64,000 bases of DNA, taken from assembly GCA_045654565.1 (NCBI GenBank), contig JAZONP010000219.1, forward strand, positions 4,153 to 68,152, read 5' to 3'. Within the stretch, counting starts at the first letter, position 1, and each line of letters opens with the position of its first letter. The position numbers were made by a program, and so were the translations under genes. The DNA comes from Bacteroidaceae bacterium (lineage in GTDB: Bacteria > Bacteroidota > Bacteroidia > Bacteroidales > Bacteroidaceae). Shown piece by piece: positions 19,808 to 58,980 of the stretch. Below the pieces are notes generated by a model that was not told where the DNA came from, searched no databases, and saw nothing but the letters and a program-made list of their open reading frames with translations.

Positions 19808-19819
19808 AATTCGTAGAGA

Positions 19820-42421: not shown

Positions 42422-42491
42422 TACAATCTTTGTGAAAGATTTATTATGAGAGGAGTTTTTTTGCGATAATAAAGATTGAACGGAGCAAACA

Positions 42492-42565
42492 ACTTTAATT
42501 TTTGATCTGGCAAGGTGCAGTGGAATGCATACATCGCTATTCCTTGCCAGGTTAAAAATTAAAGT
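42492..42565. repeat. long imperfect inverted repeat (24-nt arms, 26-nt spacer) in a 500-bp intergenic region
   Basis: ACTTTAATTTTTGATCTGGCAAGG (42492-42515) pairs with CCTTGCCAGGTTAAAAATTAAAGT (42542-42565). 22 of 24 positions pair. Confidence 0.85.
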
Positions 42566-42787
42566 ATTTTACTCATAGAAGACATTTCATTTTAGAGCGG
42601 TGAAATTGCAGAAAGGTTTTAAAAATAAATCCTTAAGGCTTTAGAAAAATTGCAGAAAGACTTTTTTCAAAACGGACAAAGAGATTTTTCCTCGCCTATA
42701 AAGAGTTTTATCAAAGGCTTTCTATTTCGAATACTATGTATAGACTAAAGACACCCAACAACATTAGGCTACAACTATATCATTACA

Positions 42788-42823
42788 ATAAGAGCCGCTC
42801 GAATTAATTCGAACGGCTCTTAT
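42788..42823 (-). terminator. terminator-like hairpin at the end of the seven-gene operon
   Basis: ATAAGAGCCGCTCGAATT|AATTCGAACGGCTCTTAT is a 36-bp palindrome with one mismatch. It lies about 30 bp downstream of the stop at 42855. The U-tract is weak. Confidence 0.55.
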
Positions 42824-42854
42824 ACAAACCTTTATCTATTGGACTACTCCAACC

Positions 42855-44612
42855 TTAATAATAAAAACGAATTGTTGTGGTTTCACCATTCATTACACCA
42901 CCTTTAAAGGTAAAACTTCCGCCAGAAGTCCAGTATTCCTTGTCAAGGCCAAACATATGAGCATTAGCCTGGTCTGGGCAATTGGTCTTAAACGAAGCAA
43001 TGAGTTGATCAATAAGGCTTAATTCCGTATCGTTATATTTTCCATAATCACCTGAATTTGCATATTCCTTTATCTTCTTCTTTGCAATTTCGAGTTTATC
43101 AATACACAACAAATACTTATATTTATCTATAAATAGACTCTTTTCATCATTACCTAATTTGAATTTATTCTTAGAGTACATCAATGCTAAGCGGAAGTAT
43201 GCATCACCATGATTCGCATTAAGTTTCACTGCGCTCTTATAACGGAATGCAGCTTGCTGGTTATTTCCTTGGCGTTCCAAGATAACACCCCAACGATAAT
43301 GTAAATGAGCCTTTTCTATATTATCAAGACTCGGTAGACCTAATAAGAATTGTATTTGTCCAATAGCCTCGTCATAAAGTTCACGTTGGATATACACATT
43401 AACCAACAAACGACGTTTATCGACAATTTCAGCAGGATCCACATTAGAAAGGTAGGTATAATTCTCCAAAGCTTCCACATAAACATTAGAGTTTGGACAC
43501 TTGCGCAACTTTCGAATTACTTGATCAAGGAACATCTGATCCATCCCCCTTTCCAACATTCGCGAAGCATAATACTCTTCTTGAGCTGGGCAATCACCCG
43601 GACTAGGAGGATCTAGCACATCAATTATTTTTTTATACTGATCATTATGTCCCTTATGCAAATAGACAATATTTCCTTTTGCATCGGAATCGCTCACGTG
43701 ATCTAACAACAATTGCATTCTCACATCAAAAATATCAAAATCGGCAACATACTGATCCGCATACTTCTTATAGTTTCCGTTCAAAGCGTAGGCTCTCTTC
43801 AAACGTTGAACTGAGATACGCATGAGCTTATCTACATTAAGGTAATAAACCTCCTCTTGGTTCTCTGGTTCATTCAAAGCATCCATAATGTAGTCATACA
43901 TTTTTACATAATGAGGATGCATTACATTCTCCTCGGTAATTTCACCAGAATACATTTCAATGTAGTCTCTTACTTTATTGCTTTTAATCAAGGTCTTCGA
44001 AAAAGTTTCGTTCATGCTTGCGTTGATTGTATCAGCATACTCATACCACACGTCATAGACATTCATCAATTCATTGATGTATATCTCACGTTGAATTGAG
44101 TCACAAGTATATCCTATCAAATCTTTAAGAATGCTGATTCCATCGTTGTACAAACTTACACGATATACACTATGCGTATCAAAAACAGTTTTCCAAGGAT
44201 AATAGACAAATATCAACTCTGTAGGATCACCATTAAAATGCAACACATCAGCAAGACCACCCACCGTGGAAAGACTAACAACCTCTTCCTCTGAGATTGA
44301 GCGACCCACCTCGCGAGAAATGACTCCTGCCAATTCGCGCACTGTCAAAGAGTCAATTCCCAAATTGCTGAACTTTGCATTAAGATTAACCTTTGATGCT
44401 ATATGAGGGAATTCTCTCTTTACTATTCTGATAATTTCATCTTGAAAATCCTGTTTATTGAGAAGATAAGTATTGTATGGACTCCTATACATCGCAATAT
44501 TATACACCAAAGAATCACTCAACACCTCTACATCTTGAGCCATTCCCTTAAAGGGAAGGCATAAAATGAGAAGAAGGACTACACTCTGAAGGAAAGACCT
44601 GAATTTATTCAT
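42855..44612 (-). CDS. exported protein with acyl-carrier-protein-like (PP-binding-like) segment and C-terminal TPR-like repeats
   Basis: Signal peptide MNKFRSFLQSVVLLLILCLPFKGMAQ|D. Residues ~58-125 read IIRIVKREFPHIASKVNLNAKFSNLGIDSLTVRELAGVISREVGRSISEEEVVSLSTVGGLADVL, with a (L)G(I)DSL carrier-protein motif. TPR-like helices follow (AHLHYRWGVILERQGNNQQAAFRYKSAVKLN, GDAYFRLALMYSK). Confidence 0.6.
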   Translation of the reverse strand: MNKFRSFLQSVVLLLILCLPFKGMAQDVEVLSDSLVYNIAMYRSPYNTYLLNKQDFQDEIIRIVKREFPHIASKVNLNAKFSNLGIDSLTVRELAGVISREVGRSISEEEVVSLSTVGGLADVLHFNGDPTELIFVYYPWKTVFDTHSVYRVSLYNDGISILKDLIGYTCDSIQREIYINELMNVYDVWYEYADTINASMNETFSKTLIKSNKVRDYIEMYSGEITEENVMHPHYVKMYDYIMDALNEPENQEEVYYLNVDKLMRISVQRLKRAYALNGNYKKYADQYVADFDIFDVRMQLLLDHVSDSDAKGNIVYLHKGHNDQYKKIIDVLDPPSPGDCPAQEEYYASRMLERGMDQMFLDQVIRKLRKCPNSNVYVEALENYTYLSNVDPAEIVDKRRLLVNVYIQRELYDEAIGQIQFLLGLPSLDNIEKAHLHYRWGVILERQGNNQQAAFRYKSAVKLNANHGDAYFRLALMYSKNKFKLGNDEKSLFIDKYKYLLCIDKLEIAKKKIKEYANSGDYGKYNDTELSLIDQLIASFKTNCPDQANAHMFGLDKEYWTSGGSFTFKGGVMNGETTTIRFYY

Positions 44613-44629
44613 AGTTCTCTAATATTTCT

Positions 44630-47600
44630 TTAAAATGAATACTTAACACCCATCAAGAGGTTCATAATTGCACTACGGCCGCCATTCAATGCTGCATAGT
44701 CTCTATTGAAGAAGGCCAAAGCACGGGGTTCCAACGAGACACCCCAATTTTCATTCAAACGATATTCCACGGGGATACCCACCGATGCTCCTACCGAAGC
44801 CTTAGCAATATGGCTAACCTTTGAAGCCTTCATGCTGAACAAAGGACCTGCAGCAAGCGTCACGTTCAAACGACGGTCAGGAGTATAACCAGCAAAGAGC
44901 GTGCTGAGGTCAAACATGTAGTCAACACCCAAGTCAACGTGACCGACGCGAGACTTCGTACCATTGGTTACCTCGGCATATCCCGCAGAAAGACGAGCGC
45001 CTGAATAGGGAGTGAAGTGATACTCACCTGACAAACTGGTATTGATACCCAGCTGAGGCAATCCTGCATACATGTTAGTAAGGAATCGATGACTCAGACC
45101 CGCTGCAACACCTACGTTATAGTAGGGTTTGAACTCACCCGGCTGACGTCTGCTCGCGCGGAAGCGATATTCCGACATACCGAACTCCATACCTGCAGAC
45201 ACTGATACCAAGTGATCATCCAATGTGTAGCGAGGCTCAATGTAGAGTATGTGTTCCTCATCAGTACGCAAACGCAACTGAGCGCCCACACTCATACTGC
45301 TGTAGAAATGTCTATCCACGTTGTAATACAAGGCATCAATCTTACCACCAGCCTCCCAGCCGAGGAGCAATGCTGCGCCGAAGCGACCCGGAGTATAGCT
45401 ACTACCGAAGGCCAACGGATTAAGCATCATATCTACACGACCACCGATACGTGCCGACTTGAGCAAGAGCTCACCGCCCTGGAGATTTACCGAATTAAGG
45501 TTACTTGCTGCAATCTCAGCACCTACACGAGCGCCCAACAAAGAGTTGAACCAACGACCTACGCCAAGACCGAGCTGCATACCACCCGTAGAGCCGAAAG
45601 CGATACCGTTACCAGCTGCATACTGAAGACCCATAGAATAGTTAACGAAACTACGACGAGTACCATACGTCTCATCCTGCATCTCCATACGCTGATAGAA
45701 ACGCTCACCTGGAGTATACTTCACACCGGCCTGGAGGTTCATGATCGCGCTACGACCACCATTCAATGCGGCATAGTCTCTGTTGAAGAAGGCTTGAGCA
45801 CGAGGTTCCAATGAAACGCCAAAGTTCTCATTGAAGCGATACTGCACGGGGATACCCACCTGCATACCAATCGACGACTTGGCCAAGTGGTCAACCACCA
45901 CATTACCCTCAGAAGTTCTTGTACTGAACACAGGACCCGCAGCAAGCGCAACATCCAGACGGCGGTCGGGGGTGTATCCTGCAAAGAGGGTGCTAAGGTC
46001 AAACATATAGTCAAAGCCATTGTTAATGTGACCTACGCGTACTGCAGTACCATTGGTCACCTCGGCGTATTCAACCGCAAAACGAGCACCTGAGTAGGGA
46101 GTGAAGTGGTACTCACCTGACACACCGGCACTAACCCCCAATTGAGGCAATCCGGCATACACATTGGTGAGGAAGCGATGACTTACACCACCGGCAACAC
46201 CGATGTTATAGTAGGGTTTGAACTCCCCTGGCTGACGTCTGCTTGAACGGAAACGATGCTCTGACATAGCGTATTCCAAACCTGCGGTCATTGACACCAA
46301 GTGGTCGTCAAGAGCATAGCGAGGCTCAATATAGAATGTATGGTTCTCATCGGTGCGCAAGCGCAACTGAGCAGCTACACTCAAGCTGTTGTAGAAATGT
46401 TTGTCGGGACGAGTATAATACAAGGCATCTATCTTGCCTCCAGCCTCCCAACCGAGGAGCAATGCCGTACCGAAACGACCTGGAGTATAGCTGCGGCTGA
46501 ATGCCAACGGATTAAGCATCATCTCTACACGACCTCCAAAGCGTGCCGACTTGAGCAAGAGCTCACCACCATTGAGATTCACCGAATTAAGGTGACTCGC
46601 AGCAAGTTCTGCACCCAAACGAACACCCAAGAGTGAGTTTACCCAACGACCCACACCAAGACCGAGCTGCATGCCACCCGTATGACCGAAATCCACTCCC
46701 ATGCCTGTAGCATACTGAAGTCCTACAGCATAGTTGATAAAGTCGTAACGGGTGTTATGAGAAACGTTCAGTTTCTCCATATGCTCGTAAAGCTTCTCGC
46801 CAGGAGTATAATTCACACCCATCAAGAGATTTACAATGGCGCTACGGCCACCATTCACCAGAGCATAGTCTCTATTGAAGAAGGCCTGAGCACGGGGTTC
46901 CAATGTGATTCCCAAGTTCTCATTCAGACGATACTGAACGGGGATACCCACCTGTGCACCTACAGACGACTCGGCGAGTTGAGCAACTTCCTTGCTTTCT
47001 GAGGCTCTCGTACTGAACACAGGACCCGCAGCGAGTGCAACTCCCAAGCGGCGTTCAGGAGTGTAACCAGCAAAGAGGGTACTGAGGTCAAACATGTAGT
47101 CAAAACCTGTATTAATATGTCCAGTGCGTTTGGTTGTACCCGTGGTCACCTCGGCATACCCTGCCGTGAAGCGAACACCCGAATAGGGAGTGAAATGATA
47201 TTCACCAGACAGACCAGCATTTACGCCCAGCTGAGGCATGCCGGCATACATATTGGTGAGGAAACGATGACTCACACCACCAGCGAGACCGATGCTATAG
47301 TAAGGAGTGAACTCACCCGGCTGGCGTCTGCCTGAACGGAAGCGATACTCTGACATCGCGTATTCCAATCCAGCCGTCATTGACACCAAGCGATCATCGA
47401 TAGCATAACGAGGTTCAATATAGAACGCGTGGTTCTCATCGGTGCGCAAGCGCAGCTGAGCTGCCACACTCAAGCTATTGTAGAAGTGCTTGTAAGGACT
47501 GGTATAATACAAGGCATCAATCTTACCACCAGCCTCCCATCCGAGGAGCAATGCTGTACCCAAGCGACCCGGAGTATAGTTGCTGCCAAAGGCCAACGGA

Positions 47601-50600
47601 TTAAGCATCATATCCACGCGTCCACCAATACGTGCCGACTTGAGCAAGAGATCATTTCCATTGAGTTCCACTGCGTTAAGGTGGCTTGCTGCTATTTCAG
47701 CCCCTAAGCGGATACCCAAGAGCGAGTTAAACCAGCGACCCAGACCAAGGCCGAGTTGTACACCACCCGTCTGGCCAAAATCAATTCCTGTACCAGCTGC
47801 ATACTGAAGACCTATCGCATAGTTTACAAAGTCATAACGGCTACGATGAGATTGGTTCAGCTCCGACAAACGGTTATAAAGTTCCTCATCCGGAGTGTAC
47901 TTCACACCCAATAGGGCATCGTACTGTAAGAAAGGATACTTGGTACGCTTATTGAACAAGTGTTCGAACGAGGTCTTCACACGAGGCTCAAACATAATCG
48001 CCCAATTGTTATCGATATCATACGATACAGGAGCGGCCACCTGAGCACCCCAGAAGAAATTGCTTGCACTCTCACTGTATGGTTCACCAAAGGGAACATA
48101 GCCCTCACGGAGGACCTTTTCAGACTCAGCCACCTTATAACCCAATGTAGGACCGATTGCCAAAGCCGCATTCCATCTACGGTCATTGGTATAACCCTGC
48201 ATCAAGGTGGTGACATCAAACACATAGTCAAGGCCAAAGTTCATATAATCTACACTATAGTTGTGTAGACTCGCGGCTCCATCATTTCCACTATACAGCT
48301 CACGCTGGTGGTAGTTGGCATAGTTTCCGGTCAAACGCACAGCAGAGTAAGGGCTGAACTTATACTCAGCAGCAATACCACCGGTATAGTCTGAGATAGG
48401 AGCATCAACATACTCCTTACCATTGTATATATAACCAAGACCACCCAACAATGCGAATGAGAAGGCAGGTCTAAACTCACCAGGCTGATACTTATTGGAA
48501 TGGAAAGCATATTCCGTAGCACCCAGCTCCATACCAGCAACCAATGAATAGTAGCTGCTCTCTGTTGAGAGATTATAGGTGTAGCGTGGCTCAAGGTAGA
48601 AGACACGATAGCCATCGTAATTGTAACGAAGCTGAAGACCTCCTGATAGCGCATTGTAGTAGTTATCCAAGATGTCTGTTCTGTTACCTCTGAGCATTCT
48701 ACCATATTCCCAACCCAGGATGAAATTGAGGCCGAACAGTCTATCATAACGATTGGCTACGTAATCGAAGGGAGCAAGCATCAAATCCAGACGTCCGCTT
48801 GCGCTCACCTGACGGTAGTCGTTCAACGGGTCCTCAAATCCAGGTTTCCAGTCATGCGACATCAGATTGATCGAAGCTCTTGTAGCAAGACCGGGGTTGA
48901 ACCAATAGCCTAAACCCGCCTCGATGCGCGGTCCCATATTGCCCAATGTCATAGCGCTCTGTGCGCCTACGCCCAAGTGAGTAAAGAGATGACCCGGCTG
49001 TGCCTTGAACAACGTATCGGTACCCACATAGTAACGATCCTGGAACGAATAGCGCAATCCCAACTGTGCATTCAAGATTTTACTTGCACCTTGAGAATGA
49101 ACCTGGTTAATGTAGTCCTTACCGAAGAAACGGGCACGGGGCTCAAACAAGATATCCCAACGGGGAGCAATACGATACCCAACAGGAATACCCACTTGGA
49201 AGCCAAGGTCCTGGTCTATGGCCTTACCATTGTATTCCTCGATTCTTCCCTCGTCAGTAATAAACTTCTCGCCCACACGACGGCTAAGCACAGGACCAGC
49301 AGCCAAGGCCACATCCCATTTCTTGTTTATATCATATCCCTGCAACAATGTTCCCAAATTGAATACATAATCGGCAGACACATCTACAAAGCCATATCTT
49401 CCTGTAACGCGGGCGGCATCTCTGAATGACAATCGAGAGTAGTCGGCCATAAGGCGTATACCAGAGTAGGGGGTAATCTGCATATCTCCCGCCAAGCCAC
49501 CACTATAGTCCATACTGAAGTCGCTTGCATGTTCCTTGGTGATGAACAAATAGTTAACACCACCCAACATCGACAATGAGATGTGAGGAGCGTGAGGAGA
49601 AGGTTGCTTCTTTCTACCCTTGAAACCATTCTCCGTTACCGAATACTCCAAACCCGCAGTCAACGAATAGAGATAGTCACGGTAGTGGTCTACATAGTCT
49701 TGATAGGGCGCAGCATAAGGTACGTTATAGTTGGCCAAAGTCACGCGCGGCTCCAGATAGAGCGATGTCTTCTCATCATACTTGTAACGGAGCTGCAAAC
49801 CTGCAGAGAAGCCATCATAATGGGTTCTCAACAACTTAGCAGGATCGATAGCTGTCTTAATCGTCTGACCATACTCCCAACCCAACACAGCATAAACGTC
49901 AAATAGGGGGTCATCATTTCCTTTAATATAATGATAGGGGCTGAACAGGAAGTCCAAACGTCCATTAGCCAAGACATTCTTCAGACGGACATCGGATTCC
50001 TTTTCGTCATCAGCATCCATGCTGCTCGTTGAAAGGTTACCTGTGGCACGAATGGCAAGACCCGGTCTGAGCCAATAACCGACACCCAATCTGAGGTGAG
50101 GGCCTGCAGAGGCAAAGAAGGGAACTTCGTTCGGACGTCTGTAATATCCCAAGAAGGGTTCAAACTGTGCACCGATACCAAAGTCCATAAATGCTCTCCC
50201 TTTGTAACCGCTCTTTTGGCGTAACGAGTCTCTGAACTCTTGCGAATGGAACGTATAGGCCAATGACACATCAGTACCATACAGCACATCATATTTGCGG
50301 AAATTCTCGATACCCGAGAAGTCCACATTATCACTTGCTAATGCCACATAAGGCTCAATGCTCAAAGAAACGGCAGGGCTGAGTAGCATGCGTGCTCCTG
50401 CACCCACGACAGCCATCGGACCTTTTTCGACCTTATCCAGACGCTTACTATAGAAACCACCGACACCCAAGCTGGTCACAGCCTCTACCTTGCGGTAGGG
50501 ATTATACCCACCAAAATAACGAGTCCAGTTGAATGAGTACAGCAACTCAGCCTGGTACTTGTTCATGCGGATCGAACGCGAAGCCTGCTGATAGATTCCT

Positions 50601-50980
50601 TCAAACACGAGCAAGCGTAACGAGTGCAACTTGTTGATCTCTTTCTCAACAAAAAGTCCATAATTGAGCGCAGGAACAAAGCCTTGCGATGTGCGCTCGT
50701 GAATCTTGTCGACATGCCACACCATACCGATGCTCGTGTTGTCGTAGAACTTCTTATTCAGATAGGGTTCACTATCACCATACCTAAACCTCGGTTGAAG
50801 AGACAAGGAATCAATTGCATTGAATCCTGGATTCTCTGCCTTAAACTGAGATCCTTCGACACTATTCTCCAATACAGCATCTTGCGCCACACCTTGCAAG
50901 GGTATAGCACACATACACACACACAGAATCAGCAATTTCAGCACGCCTCTATTTTGTCGTATATACGATTGGTTTGTCAT
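44630..50980 (-). CDS. 2116-aa exported protein composed of about eleven tandem small outer-membrane beta-barrel-like modules
   Basis: Signal peptide ...CAIPLQGVAQ|D. An N-terminal module (res ~35-255) is followed by five two-part units starting at residues ~262, ~664, 1048, 1411 and 1775. Strand-like segments alternate throughout. The protein ends ...LLMGVKYSF with a terminal Phe (beta-signal-like). Its ATG overlaps the upstream stop (TAATG at 50978-50982). Confidence 0.7.
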   Translation of the reverse strand: MTNQSYIRQNRGVLKLLILCVCMCAIPLQGVAQDAVLENSVEGSQFKAENPGFNAIDSLSLQPRFRYGDSEPYLNKKFYDNTSIGMVWHVDKIHERTSQGFVPALNYGLFVEKEINKLHSLRLLVFEGIYQQASRSIRMNKYQAELLYSFNWTRYFGGYNPYRKVEAVTSLGVGGFYSKRLDKVEKGPMAVVGAGARMLLSPAVSLSIEPYVALASDNVDFSGIENFRKYDVLYGTDVSLAYTFHSQEFRDSLRQKSGYKGRAFMDFGIGAQFEPFLGYYRRPNEVPFFASAGPHLRLGVGYWLRPGLAIRATGNLSTSSMDADDEKESDVRLKNVLANGRLDFLFSPYHYIKGNDDPLFDVYAVLGWEYGQTIKTAIDPAKLLRTHYDGFSAGLQLRYKYDEKTSLYLEPRVTLANYNVPYAAPYQDYVDHYRDYLYSLTAGLEYSVTENGFKGRKKQPSPHAPHISLSMLGGVNYLFITKEHASDFSMDYSGGLAGDMQITPYSGIRLMADYSRLSFRDAARVTGRYGFVDVSADYVFNLGTLLQGYDINKKWDVALAAGPVLSRRVGEKFITDEGRIEEYNGKAIDQDLGFQVGIPVGYRIAPRWDILFEPRARFFGKDYINQVHSQGASKILNAQLGLRYSFQDRYYVGTDTLFKAQPGHLFTHLGVGAQSAMTLGNMGPRIEAGLGYWFNPGLATRASINLMSHDWKPGFEDPLNDYRQVSASGRLDLMLAPFDYVANRYDRLFGLNFILGWEYGRMLRGNRTDILDNYYNALSGGLQLRYNYDGYRVFYLEPRYTYNLSTESSYYSLVAGMELGATEYAFHSNKYQPGEFRPAFSFALLGGLGYIYNGKEYVDAPISDYTGGIAAEYKFSPYSAVRLTGNYANYHQRELYSGNDGAASLHNYSVDYMNFGLDYVFDVTTLMQGYTNDRRWNAALAIGPTLGYKVAESEKVLREGYVPFGEPYSESASNFFWGAQVAAPVSYDIDNNWAIMFEPRVKTSFEHLFNKRTKYPFLQYDALLGVKYTPDEELYNRLSELNQSHRSRYDFVNYAIGLQYAAGTGIDFGQTGGVQLGLGLGRWFNSLLGIRLGAEIAASHLNAVELNGNDLLLKSARIGGRVDMMLNPLAFGSNYTPGRLGTALLLGWEAGGKIDALYYTSPYKHFYNSLSVAAQLRLRTDENHAFYIEPRYAIDDRLVSMTAGLEYAMSEYRFRSGRRQPGEFTPYYSIGLAGGVSHRFLTNMYAGMPQLGVNAGLSGEYHFTPYSGVRFTAGYAEVTTGTTKRTGHINTGFDYMFDLSTLFAGYTPERRLGVALAAGPVFSTRASESKEVAQLAESSVGAQVGIPVQYRLNENLGITLEPRAQAFFNRDYALVNGGRSAIVNLLMGVNYTPGEKLYEHMEKLNVSHNTRYDFINYAVGLQYATGMGVDFGHTGGMQLGLGVGRWVNSLLGVRLGAELAASHLNSVNLNGGELLLKSARFGGRVEMMLNPLAFSRSYTPGRFGTALLLGWEAGGKIDALYYTRPDKHFYNSLSVAAQLRLRTDENHTFYIEPRYALDDHLVSMTAGLEYAMSEHRFRSSRRQPGEFKPYYNIGVAGGVSHRFLTNVYAGLPQLGVSAGVSGEYHFTPYSGARFAVEYAEVTNGTAVRVGHINNGFDYMFDLSTLFAGYTPDRRLDVALAAGPVFSTRTSEGNVVVDHLAKSSIGMQVGIPVQYRFNENFGVSLEPRAQAFFNRDYAALNGGRSAIMNLQAGVKYTPGERFYQRMEMQDETYGTRRSFVNYSMGLQYAAGNGIAFGSTGGMQLGLGVGRWFNSLLGARVGAEIAASNLNSVNLQGGELLLKSARIGGRVDMMLNPLAFGSSYTPGRFGAALLLGWEAGGKIDALYYNVDRHFYSSMSVGAQLRLRTDEEHILYIEPRYTLDDHLVSVSAGMEFGMSEYRFRASRRQPGEFKPYYNVGVAAGLSHRFLTNMYAGLPQLGINTSLSGEYHFTPYSGARLSAGYAEVTNGTKSRVGHVDLGVDYMFDLSTLFAGYTPDRRLNVTLAAGPLFSMKASKVSHIAKASVGASVGIPVEYRLNENWGVSLEPRALAFFNRDYAALNGGRSAIMNLLMGVKYSF
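44633..47839 (-). repeat. three tandem ~1.03-1.09-kb coding repeats (units 3-5 of the giant protein)
   Basis: The units span 46751-47839, 45659-46750 and 44633-45658. Each begins R(Y/R)(D/S)F(V/I)NY..GLQYA.G.G..FG.TGG. They remain alignable residue by residue, with most positions identical by eye. Confidence 0.85.
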
Positions 50981-53865
50981 TATTTTCTCTTTCGCATTTC
51001 ATTAAAGTAAAACATCTCAAACAGCTTCTGCGTCTTCTTAGAAGCTTTCACCTCCTCATCTGCATATCTTGCCACATTGATAACCGACAAGTAATCAGGG
51101 TCGCAAGCTATACATTTCTCTAAATTACGTATTACATCATTTTCATCTTCCGAGGTACGAGCAGCAATCGCTCTTTCGTACCAATAGTAGGGATGATCAA
51201 CATTGGTCTCGACAATCCAATAAGGTTCCATCATACCGTCATATGTTCCCTGTTGCTTCCATGTAGCAATCTGTAAGGAGTCAATTCCGCTAAGTTCAAA
51301 ATTTTCCCTATCAAAAGTCTTCTTATAAACTTCTGCCTTCATCATCTTCTCCCATGCGGCAAAAGCGGGTATGACAATCTTTACACGATTATGAATCAAT
51401 TGCTGATCATTGTTTGCCACAGGCATCTTGCGAAGATCCAATTTAAAGCATTCCGCAAGATACTCAGCTGCATCATCATAGTTAGGAGAAGGACGCAACA
51501 ATTCAATAATGGCCTTCAAATACCATGCAATGGAAGTCTCTGGCAACTCGTAAAATTGCTCCTCCAAGAGTTTTTTACGAGCTTCCTCATCATTTTCTCC
51601 ATCTGCTTGAGCAATATTCATAATGACACTATTAATCAAAGAGACATCAGAGACCTCCGCTCTCGTACGCACTGCTCGTTCATCCTCACCGCGGTAGTAT
51701 CCACGCTTACAATTGGCTAGTGCCAACATCTTACGATAAGTGGGATTAGTTTTACATTCAGGAGCCTCCTCAATCATATCTGTAAGATGCCCCAATTCCA
51801 CCATATTTTTCCGATCCGATTGCATAAGAAGCATAATCATCTGCTCTGCAATAATTTCAGGATAATTGGTATACTTAATGATTCCAATACGATTGTTATC
51901 TGCATCGTGTTTATAAATAGGCTGACGCAAAGGCTCAACATAACGACGGACAATAGTATCCACTCCTGTATACGGAGAAATCTCGGGTTCACTAATCATC
52001 GTACGATTAATGAAAGGACGTAAAATGTTAAGGTCAAAGGTATCACGTTCAATATACGACGTCGCCAAAATATTGGCTGCCAAAGCCCAATACCCTTCAT
52101 TATAAAGAGAATCCCCATCTTCAATATCATCCTTGGTTAAACGAGTATTTACCAAAGCACGTTTAGCAATCTCCTCCAAACGGGCACGTATCTCAGGTTC
52201 CTTACGATCATCCCAATAACATTGAATAAGGTGATAATAGTGCGCACGATTAAATTCGTCGTCACGGCCTGTATCGAACATTTGTATCAATTCATCTTGA
52301 TTCAAGGTACGATCCTCCACCTTAGTGTAGGTATAACGCACCGTACGCAACTTCGGCAAGTATATAGGTTTAATAATAGTGGCATAACTTCCAAGGCGTG
52401 CCACAGCTTGTCCCTGACTAACACGGTTACCGGGATATTTAGCGATAATTTCACGCACCTGCTGAGCTATCGTAATAAGACTATCACGCTCCAAGCTATC
52501 AGCGACCACATTCCATCCAAGAACCTCCGATTCACTGGGACGGATAACATCATGCATATGATAGGGAATAACAGACTTTAGTTCACGCATCACAAAGTCT
52601 GCACGACGACGAGCAAGGTCTTCATTCGACTGAGGATTACCCTCAGGTGAAGAATATCCAAACACCTGCATAAATCTCAGTTTTGAGGAACTCTGACGGA
52701 AAGCTTCCTGCAACTCACCTCGAGCCTCAGCAAGAATACGGGTATTGGTGGTATCCTTGGGGTTAAGGGTTGCCTTACCTACCTCAAAGTTAAGCTTCAC
52801 CTCACCATTCGAGTCCATAGGACGTACCTCCATACGTTCCTCAAAATCCTCCAGATTTACATCCAAATCCTTCTCAAAACTAAAATCAAGAAATTTGATA
52901 TAGTTTGTACGCTCACCTTCGTCAATACGAATAGTATCAAGCACATAACGTTCATTATAGTCCTCAACAGCAATGATTGCACGAGCAGGATATGGATATG
53001 ATTCATCCGGATTGTGTCCGGTGAGAGTATCAATATAGTGTTTTAGACAAATGGAATCTTTCTTTACATCAATACGAGTATGAGTAGTGGCATTGACTAT
53101 AAAACGTGCCAACTGATCATTAGCATACTTGTCGAAATCCATACGACGAACCTGAGTACAATCATACTCGTCGTAATCATATACCACGGGATCTGCCCAT
53201 GCAAACACCTTATTTTCGCCTAAATCGGGACCATCAAGCCAATAAGGTTGAATAATAATACGCGAATTGGTTCTGCTACGACAAGGATGAGGGAGGCTAT
53301 CTATTTTTAGGAAGAGTCTGCCATCTTCTTCAACAGTTCTCGTACCGACAAAACCTCCTTTCTTTCTTTTTCCAAGAACCTCAAGCTCATCTATGGTCAA
53401 TCCATCCTTAGTCATATCACCTGTCGGAGCCTGCTGTTTCTTTTTGACCACATCAAAAATGAGAGAACTTACGTTCTTGGTTATTTTGCGCATTCCTTGT
53501 TTCGTATCATAACCTTCATTATGCACTAGCACCATGACATAACCATCAGTTTTAGTACTGATAGAAAAGGAAACTTCAGGATTCAAATTGGTCAGCTGCA
53601 CTTTCTTGATACTCATGTAAAGAGAAGAAGGCACACCACCTGCCTTTATCTTGTTTTCTCTAAAATCCTTTAAAGCTGCATCGGCCTCTGATTTATTATA
53701 AAAACTATAGACATAACAAGTAAAGGAACCTCCCCAAACAATGTCGTTAAGAGCCTCATCTGAGAGTTTTATCATGCCCTCCACCACACGCTCACCTTGA
53801 GCTTGCACAAGGGTGGGGAGTACACCAAAGAGACCTATAAGTAATATCCGTATAATCTTTTTCAT
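50980..53865 (-). CDS. exported protein: N-terminal beta-rich region (DUF3868-like?), OmpA-C-like segment, long C-terminal helical-repeat region
   Basis: Signal peptide MKKIIRILLIGLFGVLPTLVQAQ from ATG 53865 (an alternative ATG at 53883 overlaps the upstream stop). OmpA-like block VKLNFEVGKATLNPKD...LRFMQVFGYSSPEGNPQSNEDLARRRADFVMRELK. The C-terminal ~450 aa is helical and TPR-like. Confidence 0.6.
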   Translation of the reverse strand: MKKIIRILLIGLFGVLPTLVQAQGERVVEGMIKLSDEALNDIVWGGSFTCYVYSFYNKSEADAALKDFRENKIKAGGVPSSLYMSIKKVQLTNLNPEVSFSISTKTDGYVMVLVHNEGYDTKQGMRKITKNVSSLIFDVVKKKQQAPTGDMTKDGLTIDELEVLGKRKKGGFVGTRTVEEDGRLFLKIDSLPHPCRSRTNSRIIIQPYWLDGPDLGENKVFAWADPVVYDYDEYDCTQVRRMDFDKYANDQLARFIVNATTHTRIDVKKDSICLKHYIDTLTGHNPDESYPYPARAIIAVEDYNERYVLDTIRIDEGERTNYIKFLDFSFEKDLDVNLEDFEERMEVRPMDSNGEVKLNFEVGKATLNPKDTTNTRILAEARGELQEAFRQSSSKLRFMQVFGYSSPEGNPQSNEDLARRRADFVMRELKSVIPYHMHDVIRPSESEVLGWNVVADSLERDSLITIAQQVREIIAKYPGNRVSQGQAVARLGSYATIIKPIYLPKLRTVRYTYTKVEDRTLNQDELIQMFDTGRDDEFNRAHYYHLIQCYWDDRKEPEIRARLEEIAKRALVNTRLTKDDIEDGDSLYNEGYWALAANILATSYIERDTFDLNILRPFINRTMISEPEISPYTGVDTIVRRYVEPLRQPIYKHDADNNRIGIIKYTNYPEIIAEQMIMLLMQSDRKNMVELGHLTDMIEEAPECKTNPTYRKMLALANCKRGYYRGEDERAVRTRAEVSDVSLINSVIMNIAQADGENDEEARKKLLEEQFYELPETSIAWYLKAIIELLRPSPNYDDAAEYLAECFKLDLRKMPVANNDQQLIHNRVKIVIPAFAAWEKMMKAEVYKKTFDRENFELSGIDSLQIATWKQQGTYDGMMEPYWIVETNVDHPYYWYERAIAARTSEDENDVIRNLEKCIACDPDYLSVINVARYADEEVKASKKTQKLFEMFYFNEMRKRK

Positions 53866-53882
53866 AATCGTGCGTCCTGTCA

Positions 53883-54437
53883 TTATCTAATCACATACAC
53901 TATGGATACACCCAACTTAATGGGGACCAATGCATATCCGCGTGCATTGAAACGTTCACCATATCCAGAAATATCATCCCCCTGACGGAAGAACTTCTCT
54001 CTATATCCAACTACACCAAAACTGCCCGAGAGGTCAATATTCCATCGTTGAGTCAGTGTCCAGACATGGCCAAAGGAGAGACCAAGACCTACCGCATCGC
54101 CATGGTGATAGTCTTTCCAGTTGAGTTTATAACCCGTCATGTTGGCTACAACACCCACGTATTGTCTGGTCAAAGGGCGTCCGTTAAACCAATATCTGAA
54201 CTCTGGGGTTACACTGGTCATCTGCATCTTTACACCCCAAGGATTACGGTTGAACGCAACCTCAGCACCCAAGGTGCATTTCTCACCCACAACAAGGTCA
54301 ACACCCACATTCGGAGTCATCAAGAGATCCTTCAACGCATCAGTTCTCACAGCAACCATCTGAGCTGAAAGATCTTGCGTCGAAAGTGCCAACAATGCCA
54401 CCACACAAGTTAGGAGTCTATAGATGCTTTTCTTCAT
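53883..54437 (-). CDS. DUF3575-family small outer-membrane beta-barrel protein
   Basis: Signal peptide ...LSTQDLSAQ. The sequence VAVRTDALKDLLMTPNVGVDLVVGEKCTLGAEVAFNRNPWG...TPEFRYWFNGRPLTRQYVG matches the DUF3575 pattern (VA.KTN.L.D....PN.G.E......L...YNPW...PE.RYWF). Confidence 0.75.
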   Translation of the reverse strand: MKKSIYRLLTCVVALLALSTQDLSAQMVAVRTDALKDLLMTPNVGVDLVVGEKCTLGAEVAFNRNPWGVKMQMTSVTPEFRYWFNGRPLTRQYVGVVANMTGYKLNWKDYHHGDAVGLGLSFGHVWTLTQRWNIDLSGSFGVVGYREKFFRQGDDISGYGERFNARGYALVPIKLGVSIVYVIR

Positions 54438-54454
54438 TATGCTATTGTATACTT

Positions 54455-55420
54455 TTATTTAACTTCAAATTCAATGTTATCCTGGCCAATCACATTGATC
54501 TCGGCCATATAGTTACATCCCGCCTTAAAGCCTCCATCCAATGTCAACACGACAGGAGCCGATTCATCCAATTGGATGGTATAGCTGTTTGCCTCAGGGA
54601 GGAAGCAACGAGCAGTCTTCTCCTCACCCAACGAAACGATGAAATCTGTTGTCTCAGCCGTAAAGTTAACTCTCATCTTAGTCTCGTCATCGGCAGCCAC
54701 AACAAAGAGTCCACGATAAGGTAGATTCTTCACACATACACGGTTCGCCTCCGCACTTCCAGCCTGAAGCGAGAACTGCAATGTCACAAGTTGATGCTCC
54801 ATCGTAAATGTAGGATATACTCCCCAATAACCAGTCTCTGCACTATATGGCACCAATGAAGAGCCCTCCAACTTGGACTTTTGCTTCTCAGTAGGAGTAG
54901 CAACACTACACATCAAGTCCTGCGTACCGTCGATTTCAATCTCGTAGGCTACAGAGTCAGCACCACGCAGCATTTTTTTACCCTCCTTTACTGCATCACC
55001 CACATAATAGGCAAAGAACTTATAGCTGTAGAGCGAATTTGCGCTGTTGTAATGAGGCATCTCGTCATCTTCCCATTGGAGGATTGATGACATGTCATTA
55101 CCCAAGCGCGCCTTCTTTCCGCCCGCACTATCACCCATCAAGCAGTCAGTCTTAGAGCGATAATCCGTAGCCTCAGGAGCGCCCTCCACGCCTGTGGGAG
55201 TATAGAAAGCATAGACATAGAAAGCAGAATCCAACTCCTCATCTACCATATCCTGAGCATCATCCATAGCGACCAGTACGGGAATACGCAAACCGGCATT
55301 GTCAAATACAGCTTGGTGCATATACCCAAAGAAATCCTTCTCCGGATAGTCGATGTTACAACCGACAAATAGGGTTGCAAGCAAGCTCGTACAGATAATA
55401 TGTAAGTATGTTCTTTTCAT
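54455..55420 (-). CDS. fimbrillin-family (type V pilin-like) lipoprotein
   Basis: Lipobox LFVGC. Pilin-like features are FYVYAFY, TQDLMCS and MEHQLVTLQFSLQAG. It has the size of a stalk or accessory pilin. Confidence 0.6.
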   Translation of the reverse strand: MKRTYLHIICTSLLATLFVGCNIDYPEKDFFGYMHQAVFDNAGLRIPVLVAMDDAQDMVDEELDSAFYVYAFYTPTGVEGAPEATDYRSKTDCLMGDSAGGKKARLGNDMSSILQWEDDEMPHYNSANSLYSYKFFAYYVGDAVKEGKKMLRGADSVAYEIEIDGTQDLMCSVATPTEKQKSKLEGSSLVPYSAETGYWGVYPTFTMEHQLVTLQFSLQAGSAEANRVCVKNLPYRGLFVVAADDETKMRVNFTAETTDFIVSLGEEKTARCFLPEANSYTIQLDESAPVVLTLDGGFKAGCNYMAEINVIGQDNIEFEVK

Positions 55421-55455
55421 GCAGTATGTTTCTACCTAAAATCTAATCCTTTTTA

Positions 55456-56700
55456 TTAATATATCTCCCAAGAATCCTTCAATCCATCGATGTTTGTCTG
55501 CAACACAGCTCCGTCATGCATAAACATCAAGGTATCAGGGATACACAATGTGTTCGAGTAGGGCATATTGGGGTTCTCACCGGAATTCTTTATAAAGTAT
55601 GACCCTCCCTTCTCTTCATCAATCTCCACTACTAAAGGAGCTTCAGTAAGGGTATTGTACAGATTGATTCGGGCATAGGAGGTCAACTCTTCCTTGTCGC
55701 CATTTCCATTGTCGCTGCTTGCATACACACACAACTGCAATATACCTGCGCCAAAGCCAGCCTTAGGATCCTTGTTGGGGATCAAGCCCGTAACAGAAAT
55801 CGTAGTCTGATAGTTACACAACACGAAAGCCTTATCTACCCAAGTTCCTCCCTCGTTAATCTTGAGGATAGTGTCTTGCTTAACATAGTTCTCATCAGCC
55901 TCAAACTGGAACAACATTCTGTAGACTGTATCAATATCAAGCTTACCCGAACGCAACATCATCTTGTGAGGAATTCCCGACACCTCAGCAACGATACTGT
56001 CAATGGTTACCTGACCTTCTGCATATAGGGGCAGAGAGAAGGTGATATCCTGTGTCGCTCTTTGGGGTTCGAGAAGCACCTTTGCACTCTCGCCTACGCG
56101 AACACCAAAGGTGTACTCCTGTGTTGAGTCAACCTCAACCTTAGTGGGATTGGGATAGATAGCATAATATATAGGCTTGAAATCCGATGAGATATACTTC
56201 AAACCGGGATTGAGGTCATCTCTCCAGCCCTCTCTGTCGCACTCACAACCTACATAGGCAACCTCCAAATCATTCATATCCATGGCATTCAAGAGGTCAG
56301 TATCTTCAGCCTCATTCAAACCATTGAAGTTGTATACGGCAGGATCATGGTTAAAAGCGAACATGCGATATTCACCCTCGCGCACTTGAAGACGATTATC
56401 TTCCTCATCGTACATCTTACCGAAAATATAACGGCCTCCCTCAGACGTTTCGGCATCCGTAACATACCCAATGTAATGGTTGTTGACCACTCTATTCACG
56501 AGGGCGAGCATAGAATCGGGACGCTCATCACCCATATTATCGGGCCACTGGTAAGAGACCACGACCTCACCTAAGTGGGTGTGCTTGTCATCGGAACAAA
56601 CATCCACTTGCACACATGAGATAAACGCAGTCAAGCACAGCATCATCAGTGCTGTGCGATATATCTTGTCACCTATGCGAACCATATCAGTCTTCATCAT
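55456..56700 (-). CDS. lipoprotein, possibly Mfa2/FimB-like or DUF5119-like pilus-associated protein
   Basis: Lipobox AFISC. The sequence is beta-rich. It sits between a DUF3575-type gene and a fimbrillin-like gene. The start is ATG 56700 (14-nt overlap with the upstream stop) or ATG 56685. Confidence 0.45.
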   Translation of the reverse strand: MMKTDMVRIGDKIYRTALMMLCLTAFISCVQVDVCSDDKHTHLGEVVVSYQWPDNMGDERPDSMLALVNRVVNNHYIGYVTDAETSEGGRYIFGKMYDEEDNRLQVREGEYRMFAFNHDPAVYNFNGLNEAEDTDLLNAMDMNDLEVAYVGCECDREGWRDDLNPGLKYISSDFKPIYYAIYPNPTKVEVDSTQEYTFGVRVGESAKVLLEPQRATQDITFSLPLYAEGQVTIDSIVAEVSGIPHKMMLRSGKLDIDTVYRMLFQFEADENYVKQDTILKINEGGTWVDKAFVLCNYQTTISVTGLIPNKDPKAGFGAGILQLCVYASSDNGNGDKEELTSYARINLYNTLTEAPLVVEIDEEKGGSYFIKNSGENPNMPYSNTLCIPDTLMFMHDGAVLQTNIDGLKDSWEIY

Positions 56701-58918
56701 CTTCCTTTATATAATATTCTCTACCAGGCAAAGCCTCCTGCACCTTCTCGGCATACCAAGCAAGGGCAACCTCCTCGACATCAGCTAAGACACCACCAAG
56801 CAAAGGCTCCGCAACAGTCAGCACACTATCAGCACTTAAGCTATCAGCGACAAGGCCATCAGTCTTTACGCTATCGACAACCTCAACGGCCTTCTTCTTG
56901 GTCTTCTTCACTTTGGCCGGCTTTTCAGCTTTCGTCTTTTTGGCCTTTGCCGCCTTCTTGGCTTGAGGTTGAGGTATAGTGTCGGATACCATCTTATCTA
57001 CGACACTATCAGCCAACTCAACAAGAGTCACTACGCTATCTGCAACCATCTTGGTCACGCTATCGGCCACCTCTTCGCTGACATTCAGCTTCGCCTTCTT
57101 AACTTTTTTCTTGGTTTTCGCAGCCTTTGCCGAGTTCTTAGCCTTACTCTTCTTTGCTACGGGTTCATCTACGTTTGCCACTTGATGCAAACTGTCAACA
57201 AAAATACTATCCGTTCTGAGGCTGTCATTCAAGGCCACAAACGTGCTATCAAGTTTCATGCTATCCGAAGCAAGACTATCAGCCATCACACTACCAATCT
57301 GAACACTGTCAGTCTGAATGCTATCGACCTGAACAGAATCCTCTACCAAGAAATCATATACCTCAGGTAATTCTACACGGCCAGGATGTTCACCCTGCAT
57401 ACGCTTCTGTTCATCAGACCATGCCTGCTTCTTAATATTGTTAAGCCACTCAATCCTATCATTTTGAGTCATCTCAATAGCACGTTGGGGTTCTTCGTAA
57501 ACGATTTCCACCTTCAAACGCCCCTGCGACTCTACATTAAACTTATGCATATCCTGAGGATTCGCAAAGGTATCTGTCTTGAAAACCGTTCCAACTATAA
57601 TTCCATCGTTATTATTTTTGATTCCATCGTTCAAGTAACAATAGATTTCTCTTATCAATGCAGTACGGTTCACTGACTTACCTGTGATACTATTATATTT
57701 ATTCACAAATACTTTATCTACCTCCGCCGAGGTCATACCAGGAATACTATCAATCTCCGCTCTCACACTAAGCAAGATAGGATCAACAATCTGCTCAAAG
57801 CTATCAATCTCCACCTTAGGCAAGGTATCCTTATTTTGACGGGTGTATCTCTTCGGTGCCTCCATCATATAAACATAAGGCGTCAAATACTCGAGGCTGT
57901 AGGCCTGATTAAATCCAGGCTCGCTCTCAACAGTCTGCTTATATTGGGCAATTTCCTGATTGCGTCTATCCAGTTCAGCCTTCAACACACCAATGCTATC
58001 GTTATAGGCCGAAACATTATCATGATCACCCTCCATCAGACGCGCCACGTAGCGACGATCAATCAAGGCATAGTTAATCTCGGTATGCTGCTTAGAGATG
58101 CTACGGAAACGATATACCAACGACACACGAAGCTCAGAGGGGAAAGGAATAAACATGTTTCTATGTCCCTTGCCATTCTTGTTAACAGCAGACTGGAATT
58201 CCTCGTTCTCTATATCCAATCCATAGAAGTCAAACGAAGAGAAATGCAAGCCAAGGCTGCCACCAAACTCCAAGTCAAGTGCAGAGCCGTTCTGATAGCC
58301 ATAAAGAGGAAGGGCAACACCACCTGTAAGACCCGCTCCTACAGCAAAGCCCTGACGACCAATTGCGTCAGCATTGAGCTTAAACGAGAAGGTGCTGGCC
58401 GAAAGATAGGGACCCACGAAGAAAGAGAGGTGTGTCTTGGGATTCTCTGCTGCACGGAAACAGTTGGCGCGTGCACGCAACTTGCCAAACCCTTTGGCTC
58501 CATTAATCCATTCGCGTTCCCAATCACCATAGGCATCGCTACGATTGTCGAATGGTTGCTGACGCCAATAGAAACGATAGTCAACACGAGCATCGAACAG
58601 GTTGAACACCATACCAGGAGCCCTTGACAACCAATCATCTCCATTGAGGCGATGATGTGATGCATTCCAATTATACCTCAACCCCAAGCCAATAGACTTC
58701 TTATCATACGGGGTACTTACGATATCATAATCAAAAGCAATATTAGGAACAGTAAGCGCCCAATCGACCACATTGGTACGAATGGCAATACGATCCTTAA
58801 ATGACACATCCTCCTCACCAAGATTGTTCAAATCTTGAGCAGAGACACGCAAAAGAGGGAGCATAAACAGCACAAAAGCCACCCCTAACCGAATACCTAT
58901 GTTATTGAACTTCAGCAT
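56687..58918 (-). CDS. exported protein: DUF3575-like barrel N-terminal domain, coiled-coil, DSxxx pentad repeats and Lys/Ala-rich tracts
   Basis: Signal peptide ...LLRVSAQ|D. Barrel-like N-terminal region RIAIRTNVVDWALTVPNIAFDYDI...RVDYRFYWRQ. Coiled segment LKAELDRRNQEIAQYKQ. The C-terminal 225 aa carry DSVQVDSIQTDSVQ... repeats and KKAAKAKKTKAEKPAKVKKTKKKA tracts. Confidence 0.6.
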   Translation of the reverse strand: MLKFNNIGIRLGVAFVLFMLPLLRVSAQDLNNLGEEDVSFKDRIAIRTNVVDWALTVPNIAFDYDIVSTPYDKKSIGLGLRYNWNASHHRLNGDDWLSRAPGMVFNLFDARVDYRFYWRQQPFDNRSDAYGDWEREWINGAKGFGKLRARANCFRAAENPKTHLSFFVGPYLSASTFSFKLNADAIGRQGFAVGAGLTGGVALPLYGYQNGSALDLEFGGSLGLHFSSFDFYGLDIENEEFQSAVNKNGKGHRNMFIPFPSELRVSLVYRFRSISKQHTEINYALIDRRYVARLMEGDHDNVSAYNDSIGVLKAELDRRNQEIAQYKQTVESEPGFNQAYSLEYLTPYVYMMEAPKRYTRQNKDTLPKVEIDSFEQIVDPILLSVRAEIDSIPGMTSAEVDKVFVNKYNSITGKSVNRTALIREIYCYLNDGIKNNNDGIIVGTVFKTDTFANPQDMHKFNVESQGRLKVEIVYEEPQRAIEMTQNDRIEWLNNIKKQAWSDEQKRMQGEHPGRVELPEVYDFLVEDSVQVDSIQTDSVQIGSVMADSLASDSMKLDSTFVALNDSLRTDSIFVDSLHQVANVDEPVAKKSKAKNSAKAAKTKKKVKKAKLNVSEEVADSVTKMVADSVVTLVELADSVVDKMVSDTIPQPQAKKAAKAKKTKAEKPAKVKKTKKKAVEVVDSVKTDGLVADSLSADSVLTVAEPLLGGVLADVEEVALAWYAEKVQEALPGREYYIKEDDED

Positions 58919-58972
58919 CTAACACAAAAAAAATTACCCATGCGAACACAGTACGCATGACAAAAACGTCTG

Positions 58973-58980
58973 CAAAGTTA
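58973..58980 (-). promoter_or_regulatory. candidate -7 box (TAACTTTG) for the seven-gene operon
   Basis: The minus strand reads TAACTTTG about 55 nt upstream of ATG 58918. The leader contains a CATGCG-N9-CGCATG hairpin. Confidence 0.4.

Follow-up and report, generated by a model that had tools for sequence, protein, structure and literature searches.

A predicted Bacteroidales envelope cassette centred on a DUF3575 barrel, an OmpA-like/TPR protein and a multi-barrel protein

Outer-membrane proteins that carry tandem eight-stranded barrels in one chain were described in a computational study by Solan, Pereira, Lupas, Kolodny and Ben-Tal (2021, PNAS; PMC8346858) as the poly-8 superfamily, which comprises 289 proteins of 2-11 barrels, occurs only in Bacteroidetes (105 proteins in Prevotella, 157 in Bacteroides) and includes an (8)11 form traced to an 8-8-8 ancestor. 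That study proposed adhesion as a role and named multibarrel function and membrane insertion as open questions; gene context or partners of the poly-8 proteins are not given there (PMC8346858). Accessory genes are known from Porphyromonas gingivalis, where fimX and pgmA precede the fimbrillin gene fimA; FimA polymerises without either of them, and PgmA is located in the outer membrane (PMC3436787). Here we analyse a seven-gene operon, g1 to g7, on a 64,000-nucleotide stretch of contig JAZONP010000219.1 (assembly GCA_045654565.1, positions 4,153 to 68,152) from a Bacteroidaceae bacterium; this whole stretch is referred to as the window, and all positions count from its first letter. Comparative analysis gives good support to a reading of this operon as one conserved envelope module of the Bacteroidales with a core triad of a DUF3575 protein, the OmpA-like/TPR protein g5 and the poly-barrel protein g6, flanked by g1 and g7 and holding a variable lipoprotein slot. 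We hold the identity of this cassette with considerable confidence.

All seven genes lie on the minus strand. In the direction of transcription they are g1 (58918-56687, 743 residues), with a signal peptide, a DUF3575-type barrel, a middle region and a low-complexity tail; g2 (56700-55456, 414 residues, alternative start 56685), a DUF5119 lipoprotein with lipobox Cys29; g3 (55420-54455, 321 residues), a fimbrillin-related lipoprotein with lipobox Cys21; g4 (54437-53883, 184 residues), a small DUF3575 outer-membrane barrel with a signal peptide; g5 (53883-50980, likely start ~53865, 967 residues), with a signal peptide and beta domains followed by an OmpA-like domain and a TPR-like solenoid; g6 (50980-44630, 2116 residues), with a signal peptide, 11 predicted tandem eight-stranded barrels and the C-terminus ...KYSF; and g7 (44612-42855, 585 residues), with a signal peptide, a domain resembling acyl carrier protein (ACP), a helical region, TPR repeats and a C-terminal beta hairpin. 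The original prediction, made from the sequence alone, had called this a dedicated and fully exported envelope locus, and our analysis supports it: all seven N-termini read as a signal peptide or a lipobox, the signal peptides ending in VSAQ (g1), LSAQ (g4), VQAQ (g5), GVAQ (g6) and GMAQ (g7), the lipobox cysteines C29 of g2 and C21 of g3 are invariant within their families, and searches of Pfam and NCBIfam gave no cytoplasmic enzyme, ATPase or regulator in the operon, as had been claimed.

For the locus scan we used a g5 profile built from a 12-sequence alignment, a 21-sequence version having proved too diverse. Among 185,579 species genomes this profile found no more than four loci, and each of these belongs to a metagenome-assembled genome (MAG) of Bacteroidales/Bacteroidaceae. 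Within this narrow clade, including contigs found via g7, the order g1-g4-g5-g6-g7 is the same in six lineages, and these five genes are collinear with the window at 30-64% identity in the loci L005, L007 and L008. What varies is the slot between g1 and g4, which is empty in L006 and L008, holds g2 alone in L007 and contains five lipoprotein genes in L005. At 23-38% identity, a more distant arrangement of a long DUF3575 gene, a g2-like gene, one or more fimbrillin-like genes, a DUF3575 gene, a g5-like gene and a poly-barrel gene is found in the cultured species Bacteroides finegoldii (L009), in two common gut Bacteroides contigs (L014 and L015) and in L011, L012, L016 and L017, while two minimal loci (L010 and L013) consist only of a DUF3575 gene, a g5-like gene and the gene of a 2-4-barrel protein. 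All related loci come from Bacteroidales/Bacteroidaceae MAGs or B. finegoldii, matching the taxonomic range of the poly-8 proteins; compared with the published poly-8 set, the multi-barrel gene is seen here as part of a conserved cassette whose other members are DUF3575, OmpA-like/TPR and fimbrillin-like genes.

The claim that the genes form a co-conserved cassette in other Bacteroidales is confirmed by this comparison, while the accompanying view, in which the pilus-like genes were the core and three of the genes unusual additions, is turned around by it: the triad is invariant and the pilin-like slot is optional. Since pilin-like genes are missing from several loci, a pilus-related role cannot be the core function. 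By distribution, the DUF3575, g5-like and poly-barrel triad is the invariant core, with the pilin-like genes and g1 as accessories and g7 as a narrow-clade component; the long DUF3575 protein g1 appears as a frequent partner of the triad. In L012 and L016 another exported TPR protein is encoded directly 3' of the barrel gene. These two proteins match each other with E = 6e-31, but were rejected as g7 orthologues, as they match g7 only at the generic TPR level. A terminal TPR partner nevertheless seems to be a recurrent requirement. In L013 the minimal triad lies back-to-back with a conventional fimbrial locus (12-5627, minus strand) that encodes a DUF3575 protein, an OmpA-like protein of 383 residues, Peptidase_C11, DUF5029 and Mfa2 and is located beside an integrase, so that both types of locus are present in one genome.

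The core member g4 matches DUF3575 (PF12099) over its full length with 119.3 bits, far above the gathering cut-off of 21.1 bits, and a g4-type DUF3575 gene is located directly 5' of the g5-like gene in 13 of the 13 other loci that reach that position (L003, L005-L017); in L001, L002 and L004 the compared sequence begins 3' of the g4 position, so these were not counted. The N-terminus of g1 matches the same family with 34 bits, and its barrel aligns with the g4 family at an hhalign probability of 96.5%. This DUF3575-type barrel (residues ~28-270, nt 58837-58109) is followed by a middle region (residues ~270-580) conserved among closer relatives and by a low-complexity tail (residues ~585-743, nt 57166-56690) of xDSx repeats and Lys/Ala-rich stretches. 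Tails of low complexity, with MDS/LDS or KPKKAEK-type repeats, are present on every g1 orthologue examined (L005-L009, L011, L012), and the tail of g1 should be periplasmic, as expected for an even-stranded barrel. Kinship between the DUF3575 barrels and those of g6 was considered and is not detectable, with an hhalign probability of 1-3%.

The second core member, g5, was modelled with AlphaFold2 using 35 homologues, with a mean predicted local distance difference test (pLDDT) score of 83.4. The model consists of a beta domain (residues 31-147), a beta-sandwich (residues 180-321), an alpha/beta domain (residues 354-525, nt 52824-52309) and a TPR-like helical solenoid (residues 529-967, nt 52299-50983). 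Foldseek matched the alpha/beta domain to the C-domains of OmpA, OprF, Pal, RmpM and PorE, with TM-scores of 0.5-0.73 normalised to the target, and the solenoid to TPR proteins, so that model and search bear out the fold behind the earlier OmpA-like assignment. The g5 homologue P0086 has a match to the Pfam OmpA family (PF00691), distant relatives of g5 carry a CarbopepD_reg_2 N-domain, and sequence searches of the structure database with g5 and its OmpA-like segment gave nothing usable beyond the loop alignment. That loop, S412-P413-x-G415...N420..L423...R427, is invariant across the 35 homologues, and because the S-P-x-G loop itself is invariant it is likely to be a ligand site. PorE, a component of type IX secretion, resembles g5 in being periplasmic and in combining TPR, carboxypeptidase-regulatory-like and OmpA_C domains, and its C-domain (6top) is among the structural matches of g5; g5 differs from PorE in its domain order, in having no beta-propeller and in not being a lipoprotein, and the locus contains no type IX secretion system (T9SS) genes and no cargo with the C-terminal domain (CTD) of that system. 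The similarity between g5 and PorE is one of domain vocabulary and not of orthology.

The third and largest member of the core is g6. Comparison of g6 with itself revealed an N-terminal unit (residues 35-260) followed by five units of ~360 residues, the last three of which are 72-74% identical, and alignment of these units displays 8 + 8 amphipathic strands with alternating hydrophobic residues in each. Because the protein divides into such units, with 8 + 8 strands per A-B unit, we predict for g6 the architecture B0-(A-B)x5, equivalent to 11 eight-stranded barrels. B0 (residues 35-260) is encoded at nt 50878-50201, and A-B units 1 to 5 correspond to residues 262-646 (nt 50197-49043), 647-1029 (nt 49042-47894), 1030-1392 (nt 47893-46805), 1393-1756 (nt 46804-45713) and 1757-2116 (nt 45712-44633); the individual barrel segments, namely residues 35-260 and ten matches of the A and B hidden Markov models (HMMs), measure ~165-225 residues each. 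Barrel types A and B show mutual kinship in hhalign (95%), Pfam gave a match to OMP_b-brl_2 at 2e-22, and faint matches to PorT and PorG were seen as well. The corresponding DNA repeat has a period of ~1.09 kb, above the 500-nt period limit of Tandem Repeats Finder, which returned no repeat. The giant multi-barrel protein that had been predicted is thus supported as a poly-barrel, although it is not in itself new, since it shares the tandem eight-stranded barrels in one chain with the poly-8 class predicted in 2021 and its 11 barrels correspond to the (8)11 form (PMC8346858); its orthologue in L005 has 3.

The barrel number, as counted with the A and B HMMs, differs between loci, amounting to 3 in L005, 10 in L008, 11 in the window and L003, 13 in L007 and ~16 in L001. 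Whole A-B units have been gained or lost between lineages, and the linkers between barrels, of 15-20 residues, are conserved; both features lend indirect support to barrels that close separately rather than forming one large fused barrel. In L001 and L002 (1530-9980 in each) the poly-barrel orthologue has 2816 residues and ~16 barrel-HMM matches, exceeding the upper limit of 11 given in the 2021 study, and the order of units differs between these two contigs, which suggests ongoing rearrangement or an assembly ambiguity.

When 22 A-B units of five divergent loci are compared, conservation is as strong in the A-to-B linker and in the periplasmic turns as it is in the strands. The linker carries the motif E-Y-R-F-x5-Q-P-G-E-F-x-P, present in five copies in g6 (linker peptide EYRFRSGRRQPGEFTP), and the conserved periplasmic turns include TPYSG and GYTPDRR; in the same 22 units the predicted external loops are short (~10-16 residues) and form the least conserved part. 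Because linkers and turns are conserved and the external loops are not, the functional face of the barrel chain looks periplasmic. Whereas adhesion had been proposed for the poly-8 proteins, periplasmic linkers that are more conserved than the outer loops would fit better with docking of TPR solenoids, such as the C-terminal part of g5 or g7, than with adhesion through loops.

At the 3' end of the operon, the g7 protein had been described as an exported carrier-protein-like/TPR protein, and both family matches are present. The ACP-like four-helix domain (residues 59-123, nt 44438-44244) matches Pfam PP-binding (PF00550) with 33.5 bits against a cut-off of 20.8; it is followed by a highly conserved helical region (residues 126-400, best conserved at 126-250), TPR repeats (residues 400-500, Pfam TPR_14, with repeats near residues 437-483) and a short C-terminal beta hairpin that ends in RFYY. 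The AlphaFold2 model is all-alpha with a pLDDT of 86.5, and Foldseek returned only generic TPR superhelices. The g7 protein of the window does contain a GxDSL motif with Ser88, but across the 56 homologues only the aspartate of this motif is invariant, the serine being replaced by leucine in 8, and the ACP-like domain is missing altogether from the g7 orthologues of L007 and L008 and from the homologues P0122, P0123 and P0125. Neither the operon nor its flanks gave a Pfam or NCBIfam match to a phosphopantetheinyl transferase, ligase, acyltransferase or synthase partner. The ACP-like domain of g7 is thus probably not a working carrier. A signal peptide is present in every g7 homologue. The family is small, with about a dozen full-length clusters at 50% identity among 1.84 billion representatives and generic TPR proteins making up the rest, and an exact look-up of the g7 sequence gave no match. 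A Slam-like translocon was considered and rejected, the TPR_Slam match being weak (E = 0.012) and no 14-stranded DUF560 barrel being found. At the C-terminus of g7 (42855-42930), and likewise in remote relatives, there is a conserved beta hairpin of the form ...G(E/Q)TTTIRFY(Y), which resembles the C-terminal beta-signal of outer-membrane proteins and could act as a strand-augmentation or docking motif.

Comparison with a contig of the same species (L003), whose flanks are 97-100% identical to the window at the DNA level, revealed that g7 together with the downstream spacer (window 42418-44700, L003 9950-11922) has been exchanged for an allele with 40% protein identity. The two g7 allele classes have only the first 30-40 residues in common. 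Divergence from L003 extends to the N-terminal part of g5 (53683-53387), where DNA identity drops to 58%, and to g6, which is a mosaic of 79-99% identity; the g7 region has a guanine-cytosine (GC) content of 38% as compared with ~47% elsewhere. The pattern resembles allelic exchange at surface-antigen loci, though g7 is predicted to be periplasmic.

The lipoprotein slot between g1 and g4 had been assigned to pilus-like, fimbrillin-like lipoproteins, which applies to one of its two genes in the window. The g3 protein has no Pfam match itself, but is tied to the fimbrillins by a BLASTP match (E = 1e-16) with a protein from B. finegoldii that scores above the threshold for Mfa_like_1, a family matched by 11 of the 14 genes at the g3 position elsewhere; its profile gave non-significant matches to two Bacteroides pilin-type structures among the solved structures. 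The g2 protein, on the other hand, belongs to DUF5119 (28.8 bits against a cut-off of 27), as do four of its five positional homologues, and has no demonstrable pilin similarity: structure-sequence searches found none, hhalign against the g3 family matched signal peptides only, and a search with the g2-family profile returned only unnamed DUF5119 proteins. Searches of the solved structures with g1, g2, g3 and the g2 and g3 families otherwise gave nothing usable. Residues C29, C35, H40 and H42 are invariant in the g2 family and make up a C-x5-C-x4-H-x-H cluster that starts at the lipid-attachment cysteine C29 and may be a metal site. The labels given to the locus as a whole, DUF3575 and OmpA-like/DUF3868-like, hold for DUF3575 and for the OmpA-like fold, while no match to DUF3868 was obtained.

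The layout of the seven genes is borne out by the list of open reading frames, with gaps of 35 (g2/g3), 17 (g3/g4) and 17 nt (g6/g7). Two TAATG-type overlaps had been proposed, of which that between g5 and g6 at 50980 is genuine; the overlapping start and stop codons recur in L003 and L008 and suggest coupled translation. The other, between g4 and g5 at 53883, is doubtful because the consensus N-terminus of the g5 homologues begins at Met7 (MKKIIR), which would move the start to ~53865 and leave a gap of 17 nt. Between g1 and g2, either the proposed 14-nt overlap (56687-56700) applies or the two genes are separated by 1 nt, with the third ATG (56685) as the start of g2. Both predicted flanking signals are present. 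Upstream, a TAACTTTG box (58973-58980, minus strand) lies 62 nt 5' of the g1 ATG as a candidate Bacteroidetes -7 promoter element. The TAnnTTTG motif is common, with 48 copies in the window, so that the motif alone is not significant and its position is the sole support for a promoter role; the gaps inside the operon contain no copy, and the next one in a suitable position lies 68 nt 5' of a downstream gene for a 1909-residue protein. Downstream, a terminator-like hairpin (42788-42823, minus strand) starts 32 nt past the g7 stop codon, with 18-nt arms that are 94% complementary and a predicted RNA fold of -25.1 kcal/mol (z = -6.3 versus shuffles).

Taken as a whole, the best explanation for these features is in our view a split and multivalent OmpA-like platform between outer membrane and periplasm, a reading to which we give an even chance; the mechanism in the form proposed here is tentative and stands somewhat below that. 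OmpA is the favoured functional analogue, as it shares small eight-stranded barrels and an OmpA_C-like fold with the cassette, while in the cassette separate polypeptides carry the barrel and the OmpA-like domain, and the barrels are multiplied 11-fold. The cassette would thus act as an OmpA divided among separate chains and multiplied. Within the outer membrane, the g6 chain would form a row of eight-stranded barrels whose periplasmic turns and inter-barrel linkers offer docking motifs to the TPR solenoids of g5 and g7. Through its OmpA-like domain, g5 would fasten the assembly to peptidoglycan or to some other polymer of the periplasm, the tail of g1 would extend into the periplasm, and the ACP-like domain of g7 would be a structural remnant and not an acyl carrier. 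The result would be a multivalent platform between outer membrane and cell wall that in many lineages carries or organises fimbrillin-like lipoproteins. Several observations weigh against this proposal. The match of g5 to PF00691 reaches 21.1 bits and remains below the cut-off of 27.2. In OmpA-like domains a canonical Asp/Arg pair binds diaminopimelate, as seen in structures of Acinetobacter baumannii OmpA; in g5 the arginine (R427) is retained, but the canonical aspartate aligns to a serine ('GYS-SPEG'), so that binding of g5 to peptidoglycan is uncertain. Pilin-like lipoprotein genes are absent from L006, L008, L010 and L013, which counts against the pilus-related side of the proposal, and a barrel number that ranges from 3 to ~16 while the lengths of g5 and g7 remain constant makes a machine of fixed stoichiometry unlikely.

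The fimX-pgmA pair of P. gingivalis resembles the cassette as an accessory gene pair that accompanies fimbrillin genes. Indirect evidence suggests that FimX is a DUF3575 protein and PgmA an OmpA-like one. The pair in the window lies 3' of the pilin-like genes rather than 5' as fimX-pgmA does with respect to fimA, g5 is much larger, with 967 residues and a TPR solenoid, and a poly-barrel gene then follows. By analogy, this precedent would fit a platform or accessory role and not a role in assembly. The type V (FimA/Mfa) pilus operons likewise combine Mfa_like_1 lipoprotein precursors with outer-membrane accessory genes, whereas the cassette has no recognisable stalk, Mfa2/FimB anchor or vWA tip and can dispense with its pilin-like genes. 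A further possibility is that the cassette serves type V pilus-like fibres as a base or as a platform for their export, in which the barrels, g5 and g7 would move the g2 and g3 lipoproteins across the outer membrane or anchor them in it and supply the missing outer-membrane step of type V pilin biogenesis. The window and the loci L005, L009, L011, L012, L014, L015, L016 and L017 all have fimbrillin-like genes in the slot flanked by g1 and g4, which speaks for such a role, as do the DUF3575 and OmpA-like pair that heads the Mfa2-containing locus in L013 and a DUF3575 protein listed beside FimB in the vesicle proteome of P. gingivalis W83. We regard it as unlikely all the same: the triad persists without pilin-like genes in the four loci named above, Pfam and NCBIfam gave no Mfa2/FimB anchor, no P_gingi_FimA/FimA-type stalk and no vWA tip among the seven proteins, eight-stranded barrels have no pore, g2 is without pilin similarity, and fimA alone yields fimbriae in P. 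gingivalis without fimX or pgmA (PMC3436787).

If the barrel chain were to function by itself, for instance as the kind of multivalent adhesin proposed by Solan et al., then g4, g5 and g7 could be private chaperones or insertion helpers that keep the 2116-residue g6 precursor able to fold and feed it barrel by barrel to the barrel-assembly machinery. Insertion of multibarrel proteins is explicitly an open question (PMC8346858), TPR proteins are common as periplasmic chaperones or adaptors, with LbcA in the Foldseek list of g5, the conserved g6 linkers could be chaperone-binding sites, and the g5 and g6 genes overlap. The same partners, however, accompany proteins of only 3 to 5 barrels and ~680-1010 residues (L005, L009, L010), which should manage without such aid, chaperones are not marked by an OmpA-like domain, and the short and unconserved external loops of g6 fit an adhesin poorly, so that we consider such a set of helpers less likely still. 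The exchange of g7 for a 40%-identical allele, the drop of g5 to 58% in places, the mosaic g6, the GC content of the g7 region and the barrel copy number that differs among lineages would all be explained by a variable surface-antigen or phage-interaction locus that is retained because it alters the cell surface and is driven to diversify by phages or by host immunity. The protein that diverges most, g7, is nonetheless predicted to be periplasmic, having a plain signal peptide and neither a lipobox nor a T9SS tail, no invertible promoter or recombinase is present, and no match to the PADLOC defence-system models was found among the six operon proteins scanned (g1 to g5 and g7), which makes this explanation improbable. 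Phase variation by an invertible promoter was itself rejected, with neither a flanking inverted repeat nor a recombinase found. The least probable explanation by far is periplasmic acyl- or aminoacyl-carrier chemistry, in which g7 would carry a phosphopantetheine-linked group to modify the envelope: the above-threshold PP-binding match and the GxDSL motif of the window copy favour it, but it is already largely refuted by the loss of the serine or of the whole domain in the homologues listed above, by the export of g7 and by the lack of a phosphopantetheinyl transferase, ligase or acyltransferase in or near the operon.

The operon is flanked by housekeeping genes (an M49 peptidase, a DNA-alkylation repair protein, a DEAD helicase and LptF/G), and an Rfam scan of the whole window gave no match. 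The downstream gene (36624-42353, minus strand) encodes the 1909-residue surface protein with PKD, Laminin_G_3, DUF5013 and Big_2 domains and a weak papain-like match. It was rejected as an eighth member of the operon, being separated from g7 by a 500-nt spacer and having its own TAnnTTTG box 68 nt upstream; it adjoins the operon only in near-identical strains, and the neighbours in L001 differ. The spacer between g7 and this gene holds an inverted repeat (42483-42574) with 33-nt arms that are 85% complementary and a 26-nt spacer, and it does not align with L003. Elsewhere in the window, a gene for a TIR-domain protein with a weak ThsB-like match (61951-62910, minus strand) adjoins one for a protein with a Trans_reg_C DNA-binding domain (63003-63965, minus strand), and the two may be a small defence or signalling pair. 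A stretch resembling a polysaccharide utilization locus and rich in proteases (8742-27911, minus strand) comprises a SusC/SusD pair (19820-22816 and 18245-19807), an S8 subtilase (8742-10826), a DUF4458+LRR protein (12576-15281) and a C10 peptidase with an I69 inhibitor domain (24429-27911).

The component families and the association of DUF3575, OmpA-like and fimbrillin genes are already known or visible in annotations, and the poly-8 class is known computationally. Neither the cassette nor a function for it turned up in the literature searched, where four points appear to be undescribed: the unity of these genes as a single ancient cassette around an invariant triad, the conserved periplasmic face of the barrel chain, the recurring TPR partner and the g7 allele replacement. 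The strain-level replacement of g7 alleles is suggestive of unusual selection on the module in gut or rumen populations. Two puzzles, the multi-barrel proteins and the DUF3575/OmpA-like neighbours of fimbrial genes, belong to one conserved cassette, and the presence of this cassette in cultured and genetically tractable gut Bacteroides turns a computational curiosity into a testable system. A bolder proposal is that the triad is a previously unrecognised Bacteroidales envelope machine that organises or exposes surface lipoproteins, including type V pilin-like ones, with the linker motifs recruiting TPR adaptors. We regard this as a long shot; if true, it would provide the first function for multi-barrel outer-membrane proteins and for the FimX/PgmA-type genes that precede fimbrial operons.

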